IMG/VR virus record: IMGVR_UViG_3300028832_000004
Span: 1 to 64,000 of that record
Strand: one strand, 5' to 3'
Length of the DNA stretch: 64,000 nucleotides
DNA from: a virus
Lineage: Duplodnaviria; Caudoviricetes
The translations under genes and the position numbers were made by a program. The notes beneath the pieces were generated by a model. The model ran no database searches and was not told where the DNA came from. It saw only the letters and a list, made by a program, of their open reading frames with translations. Positions 35,013 to 60,701 of the stretch are shown here, piece by piece (position 1 is the first letter of the stretch; each line of letters starts with the position of its first letter).

Positions 35013-35303
35013 TTATCCTTCAATAAATGGGGTAGCGCTGACGGAAAACTCGCCGATAAATTTGTCCCACCACGCGTCATTCCTGATCAGGAGCTTGGCA
35101 TTGGATATGTTGCATGTTTTTGCCAAGGCATTGCGGAACGCGGCTGCACCTTTGAGGATCAAGAAGTTTTTGAAGTCCTTGCCGTGGTCCATTCGCATGC
35201 GTTTAATAATGGCGTCTTTATTCGTAAAAGCCAGCCCTACATATCGGCACTCCGAATGAATGCAGAAAAAGACATTTTCCTTATTTTTGTTATTGACCTT
35301 CAT
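35013..35303 (-). CDS. hypothetical protein
   Basis: GAGG RBS after promoter copy 3. Confidence 0.65.
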   Translation of the reverse strand: MKVNNKNKENVFFCIHSECRYVGLAFTNKDAIIKRMRMDHGKDFKNFLILKGAAAFRNALAKTCNISNAKLLIRNDAWWDKFIGEFSVSATPFIEG

Positions 35304-35514: not shown

Positions 35515-35916
35515 ATGGCTACGCTTTATGAAAAAGAATTCACGGCACAGGTCGCCCGCTTGATCGCGGCCGGATATACTATCGCGGTCCACCCTATGTG
35601 CGGCCATCAAGGCGAAATCGCCAAGGTCTGTTTCGAAAAGGATGGCAAGTATTACGCACTGTATTTGACCAACGAGTATAACCATGACATACCATCTCCG
35701 GAAAATCCCGGAGATGAAGTCCGCATAATTTTTGGATACGCTCCCGGGGATTACGGGGAGCCGTATTCTACAATGTGGCTGAAAAACGTATCTGAAATTG
35801 AACGCCGCACCTTTTACATCATCGGCGGCTATAACAAAAAGAACGCGTTTATCACGGAAGATAAAGACGCGGCTTGGAAGGCAGCGCAAGAACACGAGGT
35901 AGCGGCATGCCGGTAA
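35515..35916 (+). CDS. hypothetical early protein
   Basis: First gene after cassette copy 4. Confidence 0.7.
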   Translation: MATLYEKEFTAQVARLIAAGYTIAVHPMCGHQGEIAKVCFEKDGKYYALYLTNEYNHDIPSPENPGDEVRIIFGYAPGDYGEPYSTMWLKNVSEIERRTFYIIGGYNKKNAFITEDKDAAWKAAQEHEVAACR

Positions 35917-37341: not shown

Positions 37342-37818
37342 TTAAATATCGGCGCTCTTGGGGAGCAGCTTCTGCGTTTCTTCGCGGACCTGCTGGAGCA
37401 ATTTTTCATATTCGCGCAAAGTAAGGTGCTTGTGATCCGGTGTGATGTAGATGGGGATTCCAGTCGGGAGCGGCTTTCCGTTTTCCATCGGCCATACCTT
37501 GATGCCACGCGCAAGGTATACGTCAAAAAAGATGTCGGATATCTTGCGGCGGATCACATCATAGCCTTTACCTTTGAGATACTCAATCGCCTTGTCCGCA
37601 TCGTTCGGCTGGCTTTTGGGAATGGAAAAGTTAAAGGAGAAGGTGATCAAATCATCCGCAGATTTCACGAGGGAATCAAGGGTTGCAAGATCTTTGACAA
37701 ACATGCAATCGCCGATGCGGAAATCGCGGTATCCATCTTTAAACTTATACTGGACGAGATAGCCATCCGCATTTTCAAGGGTGGCGGCTTCGTTCTTGTG
37801 TATCATCTTGATATTCAT
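37342..37818 (-). CDS. hypothetical protein
   Basis: Own GTATATT element and AAGGA RBS. Confidence 0.7.
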   Translation of the reverse strand: MNIKMIHKNEAATLENADGYLVQYKFKDGYRDFRIGDCMFVKDLATLDSLVKSADDLITFSFNFSIPKSQPNDADKAIEYLKGKGYDVIRRKISDIFFDVYLARGIKVWPMENGKPLPTGIPIYITPDHKHLTLREYEKLLQQVREETQKLLPKSADI

Positions 37819-51215: not shown

Positions 51216-51665
51216 TTAGCGCTGAAGACGACCGCGGATTGCCTTGCGGGCTTCTTCAACCGCAGCGGCCTTCTTTGCTTCTTCAGTGGTTTCAGGTTCG
51301 TTGCCGCCTTCCGCAGCGGGGGCTTCGCCTTCGCCAACGGTCACCGACGTAAGGACTTCTTCTTCTTCGAGGTTATCGTGTTCGGCGGTTACAACGGCAA
51401 CGGTGATGCCGCCATCCGGATCTTCGCCCACGACGACCTGTACATTTGCGTCCTTGTCGGAATAGATAACAGATGCGGTATCGGCATCGATGTTGATGTC
51501 TTCAATCTGTTCGCCTTCGCCTTCGCGCATGGAAGCCTTCTTTGCGGCAACAAGTGCTTCGGCTGCCTTGCGTGCAGCACGGCGGGCGGATTCGCGTGCA
51601 ATCACAGATTCACCCTGCGTTGCCGTGCCGCTCTTTGCGCTGTACTTCTTGATAGTACGGATCAT
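51216..51665 (-). CDS. prohead scaffold/core protein
   Basis: Acidic; lies between protease and MCP. Confidence 0.6.
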   Translation of the reverse strand: MIRTIKKYSAKSGTATQGESVIARESARRAARKAAEALVAAKKASMREGEGEQIEDINIDADTASVIYSDKDANVQVVVGEDPDGGITVAVVTAEHDNLEEEEVLTSVTVGEGEAPAAEGGNEPETTEEAKKAAAVEEARKAIRGRLQR

Positions 51666-51735: not shown

Positions 51736-52752
51736 TTATCCCAAGATCCTTTCAAGGCGGGACTTTGTCTTTTTGGGGGTATATGCATTGGATTCCATAA
51801 TACGGAATTCCGGCGTACGGACAATATGTTCCTTCGCAATCATGTCGAACGTGGCGCCCTCATCTAAGCGGGTACGGACATATGATTCATCCAAGCCATT
51901 CTCATTTGCAAAACGGGCAATTTTCAAATCGCGGGTCAATACCGAGTGATCCTCGCACTTTGCGGCCTTGATAATGGACTTTTCGAGCGACGGGATGACC
52001 TCCGCAAAATCCATAAATGAATAGGATTCGGAAAGATGCGTATCGACCATTTCCATCTTGGCGCCGGACTTGTCCAACGATTCGACCATATAATTGCGGC
52101 CATCAAGGAATAAAGGCGCCTTCAACGTTTGGGCGATACGGAGCAAGGATTCAACGGCAAGCAACTTTCCGTCGCTCTTGCCTAAGGATTCGGATACAAG
52201 GGACGGCTGGGCTTCAAGGAAACCCGGATCCTGAACGAAATCAAAGCGTTCAAGGCAATAAGTGTCAGGGTCCATAATATCATCGCCGCTTTCGGTCTTG
52301 CCCTTATAATCGCCGGTAGCACGGGAGCTGATGAAAAGAATTACGCCTGCTCTCAGGTACGTAAGCAGGTTGCGGCCCATCGGGGTATCCATGATAACGG
52401 ATTCGGCATCCCCGGTTTCCCAGTTGATATTTCGGGTGAAATGGGAGCACTTTCCTTCGGCGATGTCCTCGTCCGTAATTTCAGGTTCATGGCCTACGCG
52501 GCCGATTACGGCATTGCGCTTGAGGCGCGCCATAAAGTTTTCGTCCTTCTTCACGCCGGTCCAAAGTTCAGGTGGGTACCAACGATGGTTACGGGAGGTG
52601 CCGCCGGGACAGAAATGTTTGCCCTTGACGATGGCAAGAATGGCGCCGTGGCTATTGTTAACCTCATCCTTAAACGCCTCGGAAATTTTAGCGCGATCTT
52701 CGATAAGGGTGTAGCCTTCAAAAGCGATCTCGTCAACTATTTTGCGTTTCAT
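51736..52752 (-). CDS. prohead protease (T4 gp21-like)
   Basis: SRNHRWYP, GRVGHEP, DTPMG, ISSRATG, FDFVQDPGF. Confidence 0.92.
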   Translation of the reverse strand: MKRKIVDEIAFEGYTLIEDRAKISEAFKDEVNNSHGAILAIVKGKHFCPGGTSRNHRWYPPELWTGVKKDENFMARLKRNAVIGRVGHEPEITDEDIAEGKCSHFTRNINWETGDAESVIMDTPMGRNLLTYLRAGVILFISSRATGDYKGKTESGDDIMDPDTYCLERFDFVQDPGFLEAQPSLVSESLGKSDGKLLAVESLLRIAQTLKAPLFLDGRNYMVESLDKSGAKMEMVDTHLSESYSFMDFAEVIPSLEKSIIKAAKCEDHSVLTRDLKIARFANENGLDESYVRTRLDEGATFDMIAKEHIVRTPEFRIMESNAYTPKKTKSRLERILG

Positions 52753-52833: not shown

Positions 52834-53523
52834 TTATTTGTTCGAGTTCTTGTCCATTAAGGCGAATGCCTCTGTGCGTGCCGCGTCATTCTCCGTGAAG
52901 ATGCCACGCACGCAACTGGTAGTCGTCTTGGAAGTCTGTTCGGAAGCGCCTCGCATCGAGACACAGGAATGGATCCCGCTAATGCGAACGGCAACGGCAA
53001 TGGCGCCGAGCTTTTCCATAATGGCGTCCGCGATGTTTGCCTGCCAGCCTTCCTGAAGATTCAGGCGGCGGCCATACATCTTGACCATACGGACAATCTT
53101 GGAGAGCCCGACCACCTTGTCTTTCGGGATGTAGGCAACATCCACGCGACAATGCATCGGGGCGAGATGATGGACGCAGTTGGACCACGCATCGGTCGAA
53201 ACAACTACAATGCCCTGCTCGTAAAGGGTCGGGGTGGTGTTTGCGTCAAAGTGGCGATTTTCCGCATCATCCGCCATATTCGGACTGTTCACGGGGAACA
53301 TCTTGTTCAAGAAGTCCGCAGGGTTCGTGCGATAACCTTCGGTCATTTCGGTCCACATCTTGCAAACGCGATGAGGAGTTTCTTTGAGATTATCATCCAG
53401 CTCCTCATCCTCGGAGATGCCAAGCATCTTGCGGATGAGATGTTCTACCATCTTTTCGTCTTCGGCACTAAAGATGTTTTTGGTGACGGACACCTGTTCG
53501 GTGATTTCATATTTGCGTTTCAA
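52834..53523 (-). CDS. folE: GTP cyclohydrolase I
   Basis: ETPHRV, SNCVHHL, AYIP..VVGLSKIVR, RRLNLQE, HSCVSMRG; TTG start after AGGAGA. Confidence 0.93.
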   Translation of the reverse strand: MKRKYEITEQVSVTKNIFSAEDEKMVEHLIRKMLGISEDEELDDNLKETPHRVCKMWTEMTEGYRTNPADFLNKMFPVNSPNMADDAENRHFDANTTPTLYEQGIVVVSTDAWSNCVHHLAPMHCRVDVAYIPKDKVVGLSKIVRMVKMYGRRLNLQEGWQANIADAIMEKLGAIAVAVRISGIHSCVSMRGASEQTSKTTTSCVRGIFTENDAARTEAFALMDKNSNK

Positions 53524-53643
53524 AGGGAGTCTCCTATTGTAAGTATACAAATATACGAAAAGCGGCCCCTCCCGAAGGAGGAGCCGGCTCCGTTTGAGTG
53601 ATAGGAACTCTTACTTAGGCAACCGCAACCAATGGGGTATATC

Positions 53644-54381
53644 CTATTTAAATGGGATATTCTTAACCTGATCGTAGTTATAATATTTCGCGCCGGAAGT
53701 ATCAATGAACGTAAATTGCTTGCGCAAGTCATCTTTATAGCGCCCGCGCTTATATGAAGCTTCCATGTCAGCGGCACATACATCCTTATCATCATACCGC
53801 CAAATATACGAATCGACAAACTTGCTATGCCCCAAAATATCGACATATAGGCGCACGCTGTCGCCATTTACGCCACACCAAGGCTCGCTCGAATCGACCG
53901 CCTTGAAGAAATCGTCAGCGCTCTTGAATTTGCTGGCCGGTATCTCCACGCGATCATCCCCCCAGCCCCATGCTATCTTGACGATCTTTGGTCCGGTAGT
54001 CCCCTGCGCTTTTGGTTCGGCGGGGCTACCTGCAAGAGTATACGGGGCATCGGTTTTGGTATTGCGTTTTACGCCTTTGAGATCATAATAATACGGGCGG
54101 CCCAAATCTTTACATGCTGCGACGTAGTTGCCATGAAGTTCCGGGGAAATGCTGTAAATATAGTAAGGCTTGCCCGACACCTGATCCTTGCCAAGCCCAT
54201 CCGTATTATTGAGCACATTCGAAAGAGCCATATAGCCGGAATAGATACCTTGAAGATCCGTGGCGCGCGCATTATTACCCGTGGCGGCAATGCGGTCGAC
54301 CACCTGAAAAAGGCCGGTCGGCTTATTGCCACGAATAAAGGTAGACGCCTCATTGGTGTTGTAGACGAAATGAATCTTCAC
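53644..54381 (-). CDS. modular protein: domain A (wHTH-like) plus unique C-terminus
   Basis: N-terminal ~95 aa align with 55148..56002. Confidence 0.7.
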   Translation of the reverse strand: MKIHFVYNTNEASTFIRGNKPTGLFQVVDRIAATGNNARATDLQGIYSGYMALSNVLNNTDGLGKDQVSGKPYYIYSISPELHGNYVAACKDLGRPYYYDLKGVKRNTKTDAPYTLAGSPAEPKAQGTTGPKIVKIAWGWGDDRVEIPASKFKSADDFFKAVDSSEPWCGVNGDSVRLYVDILGHSKFVDSYIWRYDDKDVCAADMEASYKRGRYKDDLRKQFTFIDTSGAKYYNYDQVKNIPFK

Positions 54382-55145
54382 TAGTCTTCGCCAAGTTCGC
54401 GCAGAATATTTGCGGCAGCACTGTCGAAATCGCGCTCATATGAAAGCTTGTGGGTGGCAAGATCCACCTCGTAACGGACTTTCTTGGTGGAAGCGCCGTT
54501 ATCGTATGCCGGGGTCTTGAGGTCCTTTTGGATGTAGTAATCCATTGCCTTCAAGGCGGCGTTCTGCAGTGCGATGGAAATTTTCTCATTGGTAAACGGT
54601 GTCACCACGGTTATGCTGCCGGATGCGCCTACCGCATTGTCGGACAATTTCATAGAAACTTCCAACAAGATGGTTGCGTTTTTCAATTCATAGTAGGCAT
54701 CATACCCGCTATTGATTTCAAGGGAGCCGGAGTTCCCTTCATTCGCATGCGCGATAACGGCGCCGTCAGCAGCCTCGGAAGCATTTTCCTTTTTGGCAGG
54801 CTTGATTCGAATCACATAGCAGTCGCAGTGGTAGCCCGCCGAATAAACCTTTTCCATCGACAAAACATAAGCACCTTTGCCATACTTTTGAGTGATGTAG
54901 TCGTTGCCGGCCTTGACAATTTTCTCAAGGTCGTTTCTGTAGTAATAAGGAAACGGAAACAACAGCTTCTTGGTATCGCTATACCACTTGGGGAATGTAA
55001 TGGACGTAGGATTGCCAAATGCATTCGTTGCCGTTACCTTTTCGGGCTGGACACCCTTGAGATAATTCGCAATGTCCTTGACAGCAGCCGTATCTTCCGC
55101 GCTCAAGGCCTCATTCTTCACCAGTTTAATCTTTTTCATATACAC
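54381..55145 (-). CDS. modular protein: unique N-terminus plus domain B
   Basis: C-terminal half aligns with 56027..56467. Confidence 0.7.
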   Translation of the reverse strand: MYMKKIKLVKNEALSAEDTAAVKDIANYLKGVQPEKVTATNAFGNPTSITFPKWYSDTKKLLFPFPYYYRNDLEKIVKAGNDYITQKYGKGAYVLSMEKVYSAGYHCDCYVIRIKPAKKENASEAADGAVIAHANEGNSGSLEINSGYDAYYELKNATILLEVSMKLSDNAVGASGSITVVTPFTNEKISIALQNAALKAMDYYIQKDLKTPAYDNGASTKKVRYEVDLATHKLSYERDFDSAAANILRELGED

Positions 55146-55147
55146 TC

Positions 55148-56002
55148 CTATTTGTAATTCCAGTTGATGATACGCGGGTTGGCCGGATATGGTTCAACGA
55201 ACTGGACCTTTTCATCGGTTTCATACCCGTCCTTATTCACAATCGCGTATTCACCATCATGTTCGCCGGTTGGCTTGAGTTTCAAGCCATTAAAGTATGC
55301 CTTGAATTCGTCCATTGTGGCATCCTCTTTATTGTCCGGATCCCAACCAAGACGGCGAATATAATACTCCCTTGATACAACCGGGCGCCATCCCGCCCCC
55401 TGGCTAAGCTTGTGCGAGAAGGTGAGTTCAATTAGCTCGCAATCCGGGGAGGCATCCCGAGGCTTCAATCGATTGATATAATCCGATGCCTTATTCATAA
55501 CATCCTGGGCGGTCTCCCGGTAGCGCATATCATAGATAAAATTCATCAAGATGCCCTTAATACGATTGTAAAAATCCGCGTCCTTAGGGCCGACATCAAG
55601 CGCACGGCTCAGATCATCGAAATACGAGAAGGTCGCGCTGGTATCTGCGGTATTGGGAAACGGGGGCAAATCATATTTGTCGGCCCTTTTCTTCGGAGTC
55701 GGAGCTTCTCCAGCCGGGGTTCTGCCCAATTCCTTACACGCGGCAATATAATCCTTCTTCAAATCATCTGTAATCGTTAATGCGGGGAAGGACCCCGAAG
55801 TGTCCCGGATAATTCCGGAAGCATTGCGCAATGTCGAATAGAGGACTTGAGGGCGCGTAAAGAACTGATGAAGATCCTTCCCGCGGCATTTGCCGCCATT
55901 TTTCATGATATAGTCCACTATCTCGAAAAGCTTGGCCGGGCGCCCGCCGCGAACCAAGACAGATGCTTCATCCTTGCTGGTCACTAAATGAATTTTTGGC
56001 AT
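55148..56002 (-). CDS. modular protein: domain A (wHTH-like) plus unique C-terminus
   Basis: N-terminus aligns with 53644..54381. Confidence 0.7.
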   Translation of the reverse strand: MPKIHLVTSKDEASVLVRGGRPAKLFEIVDYIMKNGGKCRGKDLHQFFTRPQVLYSTLRNASGIIRDTSGSFPALTITDDLKKDYIAACKELGRTPAGEAPTPKKRADKYDLPPFPNTADTSATFSYFDDLSRALDVGPKDADFYNRIKGILMNFIYDMRYRETAQDVMNKASDYINRLKPRDASPDCELIELTFSHKLSQGAGWRPVVSREYYIRRLGWDPDNKEDATMDEFKAYFNGLKLKPTGEHDGEYAIVNKDGYETDEKVQFVEPYPANPRIINWNYK

Positions 56003-56026
56003 ATGATTCTCCGAGATGCCGCTGCC

Positions 56027-56467
56027 TTACGCTGAAGCGCCTTCGCCAAGTTTTTGAATAATTTTCGAGGCGGCGTCCTTGAAATCTCGAATATTGTTTG
56101 CCGCCACGATAGCATCGGCGGCGCCCTTTCCTACCTGCTTGGTGGATGCACCGCCGTCCTTTGCCGGAGATTTGAGGGTATTTCCCATATAAAAATAAAC
56201 TGCGCTTAATGCCGCATACTGCAATGCTGTAGCAATTCCATCAACCGTAAACGGCACATTCACTATAGCACTGCCGGAAGCGGGAGATACTCCCGGGGCA
56301 AGAATCAAATCGGCTTCAACAATAAGTTTATCGGAAGTTCTTTCATAATAGGCATTGTACGCGTGGTTGACTTCAACCACCCCGGATTTGCCCTCCACTA
56401 TCTTTCTTTCGGCAATAGGGGATCGCGGCATACCTGCTCGGGAGGATATCAGGTTGATTTTTGGCAT
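56027..56467 (-). CDS. modular protein: leader plus domain B
   Basis: Aligns with the C-terminus of 54381..55145; GTATATT element upstream. Confidence 0.7.
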   Translation of the reverse strand: MPKINLISSRAGMPRSPIAERKIVEGKSGVVEVNHAYNAYYERTSDKLIVEADLILAPGVSPASGSAIVNVPFTVDGIATALQYAALSAVYFYMGNTLKSPAKDGGASTKQVGKGAADAIVAANNIRDFKDAASKIIQKLGEGASA

Positions 56468-56515
56468 AAATACTCCGGATAAAAGTTTTCAATAATATAC
56501 CCTTTTTCCGGAAAC

Positions 56516-56929
56516 CTAGGCACCTGAAAGGTGCTCCAGCAATAGGCGCTTCAAGCGTTCCACTGCCTCCTCCAATGGCGGGTCACCCCAAAAGCCAAAC
56601 CCCTCCTTTGTATGAAGGGCGGCGGGATCCTTTATCGGATAGACAAAATCCTTGAATGGGCGCGTCGATGTAAATAGTGCATGAACATCCGTATCGGACA
56701 ATTTCTTGGGCGCCGGGAAGAAATCCAAGAATGGCCATAATAATCCCTTCACGCCGGAATGAGAAACAAGGTCGCCGGTGTCCGGGACCGCCATCCCTTT
56801 TCCCGGGGAATACATGTGCTGGCGATGTACAAGATCGGTGGTCTCCCCAACTATGATCGCCTTACGATAATACTTGGTGCCCAGTAAATTGTCGCCTGCA
56901 AAATAAATGTATTTTTGTTTATCCGCCAT
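56516..56929 (-). CDS. GIY-YIG/T5orf172-like protein
   Basis: YIYFAG..IVGETTDLVHR. Confidence 0.4.
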   Translation of the reverse strand: MADKQKYIYFAGDNLLGTKYYRKAIIVGETTDLVHRQHMYSPGKGMAVPDTGDLVSHSGVKGLLWPFLDFFPAPKKLSDTDVHALFTSTRPFKDFVYPIKDPAALHTKEGFGFWGDPPLEEAVERLKRLLLEHLSGA

Positions 56930-58017
56930 TAACTTTCTACGTGCATCGGGGTCACAACATACTCTTCGCCGATTGCCTGCTTTATGGCATTCGACACAGC
57001 AGCCATATCCGCATCATGATCGGCGCCTTCCGCATGGTTCAAGGACAAAGGCATGCGCACTACTATCATATACCGCGTGGAGTTCAACGATACCTCGCCA
57101 CCGATCGCCTTGATAGCAGATTCAATCAATACCCTCGCCTCATCCGAAATGTCATACGCACTCGGCATAACCGGTGGTTCCTGCCCTCTCGGGGTAGACC
57201 CATCATCATACGGGACAGAATACGGCAGTGTAATCGAGAATGGCGCATAATCGCGCGGATCTGCGCTTGTAAAAGCGACTAATGGTTCATCCGGCACATT
57301 AGGCACCTCCGTGCCATCCACAGCCGTATAGGTATGCGTTTGCGCTTTTCCGAATTGGTCCAGCGATGAGATCGGGAAACCCTTCGGGTCATAAAGATCA
57401 ATGACCAATTTCTCGACCGGATAAACACGGGACCACGCAAATTCGGATACATAGTTCATGTATATCGTGGCGGACCATCCATACGCAAAAAGGTTGCCCT
57501 CCTTGAAATTGACAAGATCAGCCTCGCCCATATTTTGTATGTACGTGAAATTAATGGTCTTATCCTTTACGTATTCCGAATTATAAATATATTCCAAGGA
57601 CAGCGGCATATTGTAGGTGTTTTGGAAGACGGCAGCAAATGCCTCTTCCAAATCCTCAACAGCCTCGGCCTTATTGGACACGAAGGCGCATGCTATCTTG
57701 AATGATGCGGAAACCGTCGATTTTCCTGCCGGGCCGCCCTCCGCATTCGTATCGAGCAGGCGATACCGCTGCCGTACAATCGGGGTAAGGGAAGTGCGAG
57801 TCCAAAACAGGCACATAAACGGACCCGATCGTACATCATCTCGCACGGTCATCTGCTTGCGGCGCATTTCCTTGTCCGCCAATTCATCGGAGAGCCAAGT
57901 GTCCGCCATTTCATTCTCGGAATCATAGACTACGCGCATGCTGTCGTCAAAGCCTTGTTCCTTAAATAAGGCGCGTATCCTTGTCAAATATGCCTGTACT
58001 GCAACGGAGGTGATCAT
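56929..58017 (-). CDS. putative neck/tail-completion protein
   Basis: 362 aa ORF downstream of the portal; position-based call. Confidence 0.45.
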   Translation of the reverse strand: MITSVAVQAYLTRIRALFKEQGFDDSMRVVYDSENEMADTWLSDELADKEMRRKQMTVRDDVRSGPFMCLFWTRTSLTPIVRQRYRLLDTNAEGGPAGKSTVSASFKIACAFVSNKAEAVEDLEEAFAAVFQNTYNMPLSLEYIYNSEYVKDKTINFTYIQNMGEADLVNFKEGNLFAYGWSATIYMNYVSEFAWSRVYPVEKLVIDLYDPKGFPISSLDQFGKAQTHTYTAVDGTEVPNVPDEPLVAFTSADPRDYAPFSITLPYSVPYDDGSTPRGQEPPVMPSAYDISDEARVLIESAIKAIGGEVSLNSTRYMIVVRMPLSLNHAEGADHDADMAAVSNAIKQAIGEEYVVTPMHVES

Positions 58018-58286
58018 TTTTGGCCTCCGGATTCATTCAAGGAAGGGCGGCGAACTATGGTAATTTCAAAATGCTCGTGCAGTGCCTTATGCAATGCAAG
58101 CTTACGATAAAAGCGGCGGCCGGCCAAGGAATGGGTCCAATTCAACATGCCCTTCTTGCGCTTTACCCCGGTGATTGCCCAAGAACGGGAGGTGCGAGCC
58201 GCCTTAATGGGATTCGGCCGATGATATAAATCGTGCATAGCCTTCTTGACGCTATTCGGGTCATGATGCAAAAAATAATCGCTCAT
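58014..58286 (-). CDS. small basic protein
   Basis: Overlaps the portal stop and the next start. Confidence 0.6.
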   Translation of the reverse strand: MSDYFLHHDPNSVKKAMHDLYHRPNPIKAARTSRSWAITGVKRKKGMLNWTHSLAGRRFYRKLALHKALHEHFEITIVRRPSLNESGGQK

Positions 58287-59839
58287 TAGGACCTCTTCTG
58301 TTCCGCAGTTTCTTCATCAGGCACGTTTATAACCTGCGTTGCGCCGGAAATGCTATCAAGCAGCGATTCAATGTAGCGTGCCTTCTCCCGCTTGTTTACA
58401 TACGGGCGGACATCTTCATCATTGGTCAATGTCGTAATGGTATTGTAGATGTGTTCCATCACTGTCGTGGTAGCATCCACGTATTCCATTCGGTCAAGTT
58501 CGGCGACGTTGACGGCGCAATACTGGCTCACATGGATGTATTCGTCCGGAACGACCATGCCGTAGGACCGGAGAAGATCCTTTAATGTCTTAGTCAAGAA
58601 TCGGCGCAGACCGTTTTGCATCATTTTCACGGTACGCGCATAACGCACATACTGGCGCATGGCAAGTCCGGCGGGCTGTGCGGTGCGGCCTTCAGGACTG
58701 AATAGGAATGAATACGGCACGCCCTTAATATCTGTAATAAGATTACGGAGCGCATTGATTTGATCCGGAAGGGTTGCATCATTCGTCTGTGCGGATCCAA
58801 GGGCAACGCCAATGGCGCCACGTTGCGATTGTTCGGGGACCACTCGAAGCTTTGCTGCGGCGGCGGCAAACATGCGAATTGCGCCAATATCCTGCGTATT
58901 CAAAGATGTCAGGTCGGCGCTGTCGTTATTATTAAGAATATTTTCATAATATGCGGTGAATGAGCGCAGCTGCGTAAGATCAAGTCCATCCGGCGCCTTC
59001 ACGCCAACAATGGTATTGCGTTGAATTGCGGCGGCAATGCTTGCAAGATACATCTGCTCCAACAGCTCAAGCGAAAACACCTTATCATATATTTCAACAC
59101 AGAATGGGCGCCCGACCGTGGATGTCTGCGCAATAATGGAGTCCCTGCCTTGAATCATAATGGGATTCGTGGACAATGCAAATCGCATTCTATCGGACTG
59201 CATGGACAGGCATACTATATCATCGTTGTCTAGCGTGGAGATGCGGGTGGAATCGCCCGGAGTCACCTTATAGTAAAGCGGCTTTGCGCTCAGCCCTTCA
59301 AGGCCGACCGTAAATACGGATCCCGGCTGATAACTGTCCTGAAGGCCCACTATGTGGTTTTCCTGATCGCGCAGATATTCAATCCAATATTGCCCATAGA
59401 AAATGGCATCGCATACAATCTTATTCAGGAACGTGTCCAATGAGATATTATAGCGAAAATCGTCGACAATTCGCTGCGCCTTGCGGGATGCCGGATACTT
59501 GGTATCGATTGTCAAGTCGATTGATTTTTCGGTCTGCGGATCGATGGCCAGCACATCGTATGCGTAGGCATTAATCATTGCGGAGACCAAATATTGACCT
59601 TTCAAAGGTTCATACTTATTTAGGTCGTTTCTATAGGTGACAAAATGCTCATAAAGCTGCATCCACAATCCCATTTGGGACGCGGGGGCATTGGCGATTT
59701 GGCGTAACCGTTCGCGGTCAGCATCGGACGTGGCAATAGCATATTCAACATCGGTCATGCGGGACGCGATGTTCTGCATTATGGTTTGATCTGCAAATAC
59801 CTGCTGAAATGTCCGGGCCGCACGTGTAAAAATGTTCAA
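58286..59839 (-). CDS. portal protein (T4 gp20-like)
   Basis: LVSAMINAYAYD, AIFYGQYW, VGRP, LELLE, KGVPYSFL, YARTVKMMQ. Confidence 0.8.
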   Translation of the reverse strand: MNIFTRAARTFQQVFADQTIMQNIASRMTDVEYAIATSDADRERLRQIANAPASQMGLWMQLYEHFVTYRNDLNKYEPLKGQYLVSAMINAYAYDVLAIDPQTEKSIDLTIDTKYPASRKAQRIVDDFRYNISLDTFLNKIVCDAIFYGQYWIEYLRDQENHIVGLQDSYQPGSVFTVGLEGLSAKPLYYKVTPGDSTRISTLDNDDIVCLSMQSDRMRFALSTNPIMIQGRDSIIAQTSTVGRPFCVEIYDKVFSLELLEQMYLASIAAAIQRNTIVGVKAPDGLDLTQLRSFTAYYENILNNNDSADLTSLNTQDIGAIRMFAAAAAKLRVVPEQSQRGAIGVALGSAQTNDATLPDQINALRNLITDIKGVPYSFLFSPEGRTAQPAGLAMRQYVRYARTVKMMQNGLRRFLTKTLKDLLRSYGMVVPDEYIHVSQYCAVNVAELDRMEYVDATTTVMEHIYNTITTLTNDEDVRPYVNKREKARYIESLLDSISGATQVINVPDEETAEQKRS

Positions 59840-59857: not shown

Positions 59858-60244
59858 CTACGCAAAATGAAGAACTCTCCACATTTTACGGCTATGAGAA
59901 CCACTAAAGACTGCATTACGGACGCAGTCCGTTAGCAGAAACCGGTATTTGCATTTGTATTCGGCCTTAGTTATCTTCCCTTTTAAATAACGCATCAAAT
60001 TAAAGCGCCCGCCAAAAACAACGCGCTTGGTTCCAAAGGAAGAATAAATGCCATGCGCATATCTTACGGCGGACTGCATAAGCCAGCTGTTCACGTGAAA
60101 ATACTGCTTGACATGCCGCCGAACCCCCGTTTCATCTAGACCATCTAAATAACGATTATATGCCATGCGGACAATGCTACTGAAAGCACGCATGTGGCCC
60201 AACAGGGAGGAACCATTCGTTATTTGAAGTTTAAGGGTTTTCAT
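59858..60244 (-). mobile_element. tnpB: internally deleted IS200/IS605 TnpB-like remnant
   Basis: MKTLKL..FSSIVRMAYNR..NSWLMQSA..VVFGGR..KGKITKAEYK joined to a YRF..VFS tail; no RuvC. Confidence 0.65.
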
Positions 60245-60338
60245 ACACTAAATATACGATTTTCGAGGAAATTTCCGCACCGGATAATAAAAGGCGGCCT
60301 AATCAACCGCCTTAAAATACCGCAAATGAAGGCACCGA

Positions 60339-60701
60339 CTATCCAACGGAATAACCTTTTTCTTTAAGGGCATTCATAATGGCGTCGATCACCGCATTGA
60401 CCTCTGGGCGCTCGTCCATCCAGGCATTGTAAGTTTCTTCCTCTTCCCCCTTTGGAAGGCCAATATGGGCAATAATCCATTCCTCCAAATAGAGCCCGGA
60501 ATCGGACAACGTATCCATCAAATCTTCGATCTCATAACCGTCTTTGGGGTCGATTTTGCGGCGCTTGAGACTTTTAAGATAAAGATCAGCAGCACTCCGC
60601 ACAAAATCATCTTTAGTCATTGCACCATAATTATAACGGCGAGCCTCGGATGCAGGGGTAGCCCTCACAGCCTTCTTTTTGATCAATTTAATTCTAGGCA
60701 T
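60339..60701 (-). CDS. hypothetical protein sharing the MPxIxL leader
   Basis: MPRIKLIKKK..SEA; AGGAG RBS. Confidence 0.7.
   Translation of the reverse strand: MPRIKLIKKKAVRATPASEARRYNYGAMTKDDFVRSAADLYLKSLKRRKIDPKDGYEIEDLMDTLSDSGLYLEEWIIAHIGLPKGEEEETYNAWMDERPEVNAVIDAIMNALKEKGYSVG

Follow-up and report, generated by a model that had tools for sequence, protein, structure and literature searches.

A four-gene mosaic array in the head module of an uncultured bovine gut phage: candidate capsid-targeted internal proteins

The head module of an uncultured phage from a bovine gut metagenome assembly contains an array of four genes whose products may be capsid-targeted, protease-processed internal proteins, analogous to the internal proteins (IPs) of phage T4 with their capsid targeting sequence. 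The window analysed here is the first 64 kb (64,000 nucleotides) of virus record IMGVR_UViG_3300028832_000004, which is complete at 127,987 bp and carries direct terminal repeats. All four products open with a Lys-rich, disordered leader of 8–25 residues ending in Glu-Ala or Glu-Gly. The head-cargo reading gains from the resemblance of this shared leader to the N-terminus of the putative scaffold and from the presence of a gp21-type protease. Since every functional step is inferred, from targeting and cleavage through packaging and injection to a possible anti-defence or DNA-binding activity in the infected cell, we do no more than lean towards it.

Organization of the array and its leader

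The four genes are co-oriented on the minus strand and comprise two repeated domains (A and B) and three further modules (X, Y and Z). In the list, as in all motifs below, the arrow marks the bond following the junction Glu:

56027–56467, minus strand: gene 1 (B), 146 aa, leader MPKINLI... and a stand-alone B domain
55148–56002, minus strand: gene 2 (A+X), 284 aa, leader MPKIHLVTSKDE↓A, then A, a Pro/Ala linker and X
54381–55139/55145, minus strand: gene 3 (Y+B), 252/254 aa, leader MKKIKLVKNE↓A, module Y, a linker and B
54741–55119, minus strand: module Y, an insertion/deletion unit absent from the related locus L028
53644–54381, minus strand: gene 4 (A+Z), 245 aa, leader (M)KIHFVYNTNE↓A, winged-helix A, a linker and Z

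Genes 2–4 follow at gaps of 24 and 8 nt and then with a 1-nt overlap, gene 4 beginning with a GTG that overlaps the stop of gene 3. For gene 3 itself an ATG at 55139 with an AGGAG box and an alternative GTG at 55145 were noted. An earlier note on this DNA had described the locus as a mosaic in the order B, A+X, Y+B, A+Z, and this layout was borne out, with all four genes where it had placed them. The two B copies (genes 1 and 3) share 51 of 118 residues (43%, E 7e-27) and the two A copies (genes 2 and 4) 35 of 94 (37%, E 2e-19) in BLASTP, and neither domain has a further copy anywhere in the 128-kb genome. The A genes align nowhere beyond A, no similarity between X and Z was found by BLASTP, and X, Y and Z are mutually unrelated. 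The linkers of both A genes are Pro/Ala-rich and were modelled without structure, as fits the same note's description of A joined by such linkers to unrelated C-termini.

The leaders of genes 1–4 start MPKINLI, MPKIHLV, MKKIKLV and (M)KIHFVY, and in both structure models obtained (A+X and Y+B) the leader is disordered, with a predicted local distance difference test score (pLDDT) of 26–30. Two classes were distinguished: class 1 reads M-x-[KR]-I-x-L-[IV]...[ND]-E↓A, while class 2, seen in relatives on B-type and A-type genes alike, reads M-[FY]-[VI]-K-K-[KR]-Y-E-[AGS]. Both patterns were scanned against the 609 crudely predicted genes (123,328 residues) of this phage and two complete relatives. 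The class-2 pattern occurred six times at an N-terminus and never internally, and the class-1 pattern 11 times at an N-terminus against about 0.55 expected from its internal frequency, an enrichment of about 20-fold. Synonymous codons vary freely between leader copies, which points to selection on the peptide.

Each junction carries a Glu. Domain A invariably follows [NDH]-E↓A-[ST], whether a leader or another module stands in front, and the motif before B is E↓G-x-S-G or YE↓AED, again regardless of what comes ahead of it. In gene 1, I-A-E20 and I-V-E25 immediately precede B, and the disordered linker between Y and B in gene 3 carries ASE↓A and ANE↓G. The Glu sites that the earlier note had seen at the junctions thus fall in disordered linkers of the models.

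The candidate processing enzyme, the putative scaffold and the capsid protein are encoded downstream of the array:

51736–52752, minus strand: gp21-like prohead protease of the T4 gp21 family, the proposed processing enzyme
51216–51665, minus strand: putative scaffold, acidic, 149 aa
49490–51187, minus strand: gp23-like major capsid protein

The protease belongs to PHROG 207, head maturation protease (E 9e-18), and aligns with T4 gp21 (BLASTP E 4e-4) with the catalytic His85 and Ser140 conserved. Members of the gp21 family, as well as the homologs of phiKZ and SPN3US, cleave after Glu (PMC9026906; PMC5694885). The earliest gp21 site to be identified was a Glu-Ala bond, and the phiKZ and SPN3US relatives use S/A-x-E, hence the residue at P3 varies within the family (PMC9026906). 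The putative scaffold begins MIRTIKKY in this phage and MSIKI[IL]KKF.GKK.E↓[SA] in its relatives, where the N-terminus holds both leader cores, I-K-[LI]-[IL]-K and [IL]-K-K-[FY]. In the capsid protein the sequence AYKRYE65↓[SA]DLVSGG is invariant and lies just upstream of the conserved mature core; E65 is the only Glu of this protein near the T4 gp23 cut at E65↓A66, the alignment being too weak to fix the residue. Its K-R-Y-E parallels the end of the class-2 leaders, K-[KR]-Y-E.

The leader is not confined to the array. About six scattered genes per genome carry it, and across the three genomes the domains behind it are unrelated (A, B, W, W', V, a Fib_succ_major domain and another winged helix-turn-helix, wHTH). 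It is therefore the leader, and not A, that is the element common to the A genes, the B genes and the scattered unrelated genes. Further carriers in this phage, added by looser scans, are:

60339–60701, minus strand: 120 aa, leader MPRIKLIKKK...ASE↓A, just upstream of the portal region
37342–37818, minus strand: 158 aa, leader MNIKMIHKNE↓A, no family match
Genome positions 64434, 76496, 105775 and 109770: four carriers beyond the window

The gene at genome position 76496 (76496–76816, plus strand) encodes 106 aa in which a MarR-like winged helix (phrog_2440, E 1.2e-6) comes after the class-1 leader MHRIRLIKHE↓A, and its product is the third leader-tagged wHTH protein of the phage. In one of the complete relatives, a leader-tagged gene (L018 845–1384; G002 100845–101384) encodes a Fibrobacter succinogenes major paralogous domain (PF09603, E 8e-11), which hints at a Fibrobacter or Bacteroidota-type rumen host.

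Module turnover and domain folds

Using the conserved 137-aa gene beside the array as an anchor, 11 metagenomic loci (L028–L038) were retrieved and domain-mapped:

Window: B, A+X, Y+B, A+Z
L028: B, B, A+Z
L029: A+X, B, A+Z'
L030: A+X, B, W'+A+Z'
L031: W+A+Z' only
L033: A+X'', B (the contig ends after B)
L034: A+X'', B, W'+A+Z', then ThyA
L035: B, W'+W+A+Z' (608 aa), then ThyA
L036: V, B
L037: W only, then ThyA
L032 and L038: incomplete at the contig end, L032 being W+A as far as its sequence reaches

The number of array genes between the conserved flanks ranges from one to four, built from the modules A, B, W, W', V, X, X'', Y, Z and Z', and any single family can be absent; the hypervariability anticipated by the earlier note was thus found among relatives, together with module indels. 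Every array gene of the related loci opens with a class-1 or class-2 leader, and behind A there is always a Pro/Ala linker with a variable C-terminal domain. A close comparison is with L028, whose flanks are 93–95% identical to the window and which differs by two clean indels. In one, the body of A+X is gone with its last 36 nt left; in the other, exactly Y is gone, so that the E-G-x-S-G with which B starts comes immediately after the leader. Modules are thus gained and lost in frame, exactly between leader and domain junctions. The idea of a carrier with variable cargo survives in part: the content is variable, but A is an unlikely carrier, as the shared element is the 8–25-residue leader and modules enter between it and A or B. 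As a separate observation, the first B gene of L028 (4354–4818) has its N-terminal ~35 residues in another frame and has lost the leader, which reflects either a decaying gene or an assembly error.

Neither Pfam nor PHROGs returned a family for the array proteins, in agreement with the earlier note, and a Pfam scan of ten cargo-bearing relatives gave none. The A family is tiny, with 17 clusters found by an A profile among 1.84 billion representative proteins, and the B family equally so, with 18 clusters at 90% identity. In the AlphaFold2 (AF2) model of A+X, residues 1–14 are disordered (pLDDT about 30), residues ~15–95 form a winged helix (pLDDT 78–87), the Pro/Ala linker at 96–120 is unstructured, and X comprises three helices followed by a beta sheet. 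The modelled A has the topology H1-B1-H2-H3-B2-wing-B3 and is superposable on solved wHTH proteins. VIA-align matched it to MarR, ArsR/SmtB, TubR and STIV F93 with Z 8–10.3 and a root-mean-square deviation of 1.7–4 Å over 74–84 residues, 43 chains in all reaching Z >=8, and Foldseek gave probabilities of 0.98–1.0 (E about 0.1) with AspA and PH1932-type chains. On the model, then, A is a winged-helix fold, as had been proposed from its sequence, and is probably DNA-binding; it superposes on the winged helices of the above proteins without membership of a sequence family. Winged-helix matches filled the listing of the A+X fold search.

In the Y+B model, residues 1–12 and the linker at 119–136 are disordered, Y is an alpha/beta domain of moderate confidence, and B (pLDDT >90) consists of four strands followed by three long helices and a short one. 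No fold match above background was found for B or Y with Foldseek against PDB and BFVD or in a VIA-wide search (best Z about 6), and ESM Atlas searches with B and with X gave no usable match. Two leads came up. Type III secretion chaperones matched Y+B at Z 4.5–5.5, which was not trusted. A single-sequence similarity of B to AcrIIA6 (6eyy; phmmer E 0.2, phrog_4964 E 0.029) did not recur with the B-family profile or for 13 of the 14 members, and the fold searches did not return AcrIIA6.

Genomic setting and regulatory signals

The array was recovered intact and joint-free in contigs from four bovine-gut sequencing runs, and the locus is present almost letter for letter in three samples. It has no match in cultured phages (blastn and tblastn, 50,697 phage records), whose capsid proteins are at most 33% identical to that of this phage. 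The remaining features around it are:

58286–59839, minus strand: T4-like portal
56516–58286, minus strand: three conserved genes of 90, 362 and 137 aa, on the portal side of the array
56493–56500, minus strand: promoter-like GTATATTA, 33 nt before the gene 1 ATG
53586–53563, minus strand: intrinsic-terminator-like hairpin, 10-bp stem with 8 GC, then a T run, right after A+Z
52834–53550, minus strand: GTP cyclohydrolase I (FolE), after the array and terminator

The array does lie between portal and protease, as had been noted, but adjoins neither, with three genes before it and FolE after it. These three genes are present in every relative, begin without the leader and gave no family match in Pfam or PHROGs; the pI is 10.8 for the 90-aa product and 4.6 for the 362-aa product. 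For FolE, the ATG at 53523 is a more probable start than the TTG at 53550. In three of the related loci a thymidylate synthase gene (ThyA) is inserted between the array and FolE (L034 9639–10448, L035 3123–3932, L037 6059–6868). Upstream of the portal, two small genes (59858–60701, minus strand) encode 128 aa and the leader-bearing 120 aa, whereas in the relatives G001 and G002 a gene of 244–245 aa directly abuts the portal, so that this region looks like another variable slot.

The promoter-like GTATATTA, with consensus GTATATT[AT], is 8.5-fold enriched upstream of the genes of this genome and also stands in front of the scaffold and FolE genes. Within the array it precedes gene 1 only. With the hairpin after A+Z and the tight packing of genes 2–4, this fits a single transcription unit, as the earlier note had held, both signals being no more than matches to a consensus. 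A second element, GGGTGTCTTTTTCAA, occurs ~10–15 nt before a [GC]TATATT[AT] box in front of several genes (window 35013–35303, minus strand, and 35515–35916, plus strand; genome 68961, 74110, 79390 and 116343) and may represent a distinct promoter class.

Proposed head cargo and alternative explanations

If the array is a cassette set for accessory head-internal proteins, the leader would act like the T4 capsid targeting sequence and dock the precursor to the scaffold core during prohead formation. The gp21-family protease would then cleave after the Glu at the junction of leader and domain, and probably also at the Glu junctions between stacked modules, and the mature modules (A with X or Z, B, and Y) would be freed inside the head and leave with the DNA at infection. 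A wider version, which we offer only tentatively, has the leader marking ~10 capsid-cargo proteins per genome. Stacked precursors (up to leader-W'-W-A-Z', 608 aa) would be cut polyprotein-like at Glu junctions into several injected proteins, and three winged-helix DNA binders among them would act on phage or host DNA before phage gene expression.

The T4 IPs are diverse proteins with only the capsid targeting sequence in common, and their sets differ among T4 relatives; propeptides of 10–19 residues, later cleaved off, direct proteins with no other relationship into the core (PMC9026906; PMC3012670). The array resembles T4 IPI, IPII, IPIII and Alt in having a short N-terminal propeptide on otherwise unrelated, dispensable proteins, a junction ending in Glu, and a gp21-family protease (His and Ser kept) encoded nearby. 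Diverse gene content in relatives and a T4-like portal, protease, scaffold and gp23-like capsid are also shared. It is unlike them in that the leader sequences differ, with two classes here, and in that its products are bigger, contain several domains and can have more than one module behind a single leader. The T4 ip genes presumably lie outside the head module, whereas the array lies inside it.

Two further systems offer partial parallels. The giant phages phiKZ, 201phi2-1 and SPN3US have paralogous head proteins with conserved N-terminal propeptides, gp53 and gp54 of SPN3US being diverged yet identical in their 15 N-terminal residues, and a diverged homolog of gp21 cuts these propeptides at several sites each, following the Glu of S/A-x-E or A-x-E motifs (PMC5694885; PMC9026906). 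They usually exceed 100 residues, unlike the 8–25-residue leaders of this 128-kb phage, and no homology was detected. In T4-type hyperplastic regions, variable ORFan cassettes punctuate conserved core modules (PMC2839356), much as they do here; the difference is that here whole protein modules, and not genes only, swap in frame behind a common leader.

Several points weigh against head cargo. The phage is uncultured, and its scaffold was assigned from position and composition only, with no BLASTP similarity to T4 gp22. The strict T4 motif L/I-x-E is found in gene 1 only (IAE20, IVE25), other junctions reading KNE, KDE, TNE and K[KR]YE, and precursors in relatives reach 608 aa, unlike the small T4 IPs. 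Run over the complete T4 record with E values as high as 10 allowed, the A and B profiles gave no hit, but missing homology to the T4 IPs has no bearing on the mechanism, since T-even IPs are themselves mutually unrelated. FolE and ThyA in the same inter-module region show that the slot accepts non-structural genes, and given these, map position by itself proves nothing. Lastly, winged-helix proteins are commonplace regulators, for which packaging is not required.

This last point leads to the explanation that we consider unlikely but the strongest of the rivals, namely that the products are non-virion accessory proteins (regulators, anti-defence or host-takeover proteins) and that the leader serves translation initiation, turnover or some other docking. 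Translation can benefit from Lys codons next to the ATG, the winged helix of A is generic and like those of the MarR/ArsR regulators, a third protein with the leader gives a match to a family of phage transcriptional regulators (phrog_2440), and the metabolic FolE and ThyA share the locus. Against this, the leader is kept as a peptide with hydrophobic and Glu-Ala positions, not merely as A-rich codons; it is similar to the start of the scaffold protein and is absent from the capsid and portal genes. The Glu junction, in addition, persists through module insertion.

Less probable again is that the array encodes prohead-core accessories like T4 gp67 and gp68, which would be targeted and cut but then degraded or expelled, not injected. 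These share the array's map position between portal and protease, and the scaffold-like leader and the several Glu sites in the linkers would suit such a role. A gene number of one to four with any family dispensable is a poor fit to a size-determining core, however, the domains are well folded (B pLDDT >90), and hhalign of B with gp67 or gp68 gave a probability of <=1.4%. That the genes encode ordinary structural virion parts (decoration, neck or adaptor) duplicated by chance is very improbable: they do lie within the late head module and two B members weakly match head-tail adaptor phrog_477 (E 0.12, sub-threshold), but presence and absence vary among close relatives, a winged helix is atypical of such parts, and the searches returned no structural-protein fold, a match that the earlier note had named as counting against its own proposal.

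Should the leader indeed be a capsid address, as the head-cargo reading proposes, the injected proteins of an uncultured rumen phage lineage would be readable directly from sequence, and this cargo would be one of the few places in which first-minute host-takeover or anti-defence functions could be predicted without culture. The in-frame indels between near-identical strains suggest a possible route of renewal, in which any domain placed between leader and junction would be packaged. If true, this would also supply a natural rule by which foreign proteins could be brought into capsids other than that of T4. No Pfam or PHROG annotation exists for the A, B, X, Y, Z, W and V families, which are in turn candidates for new anti-defence or DNA-handling activities.

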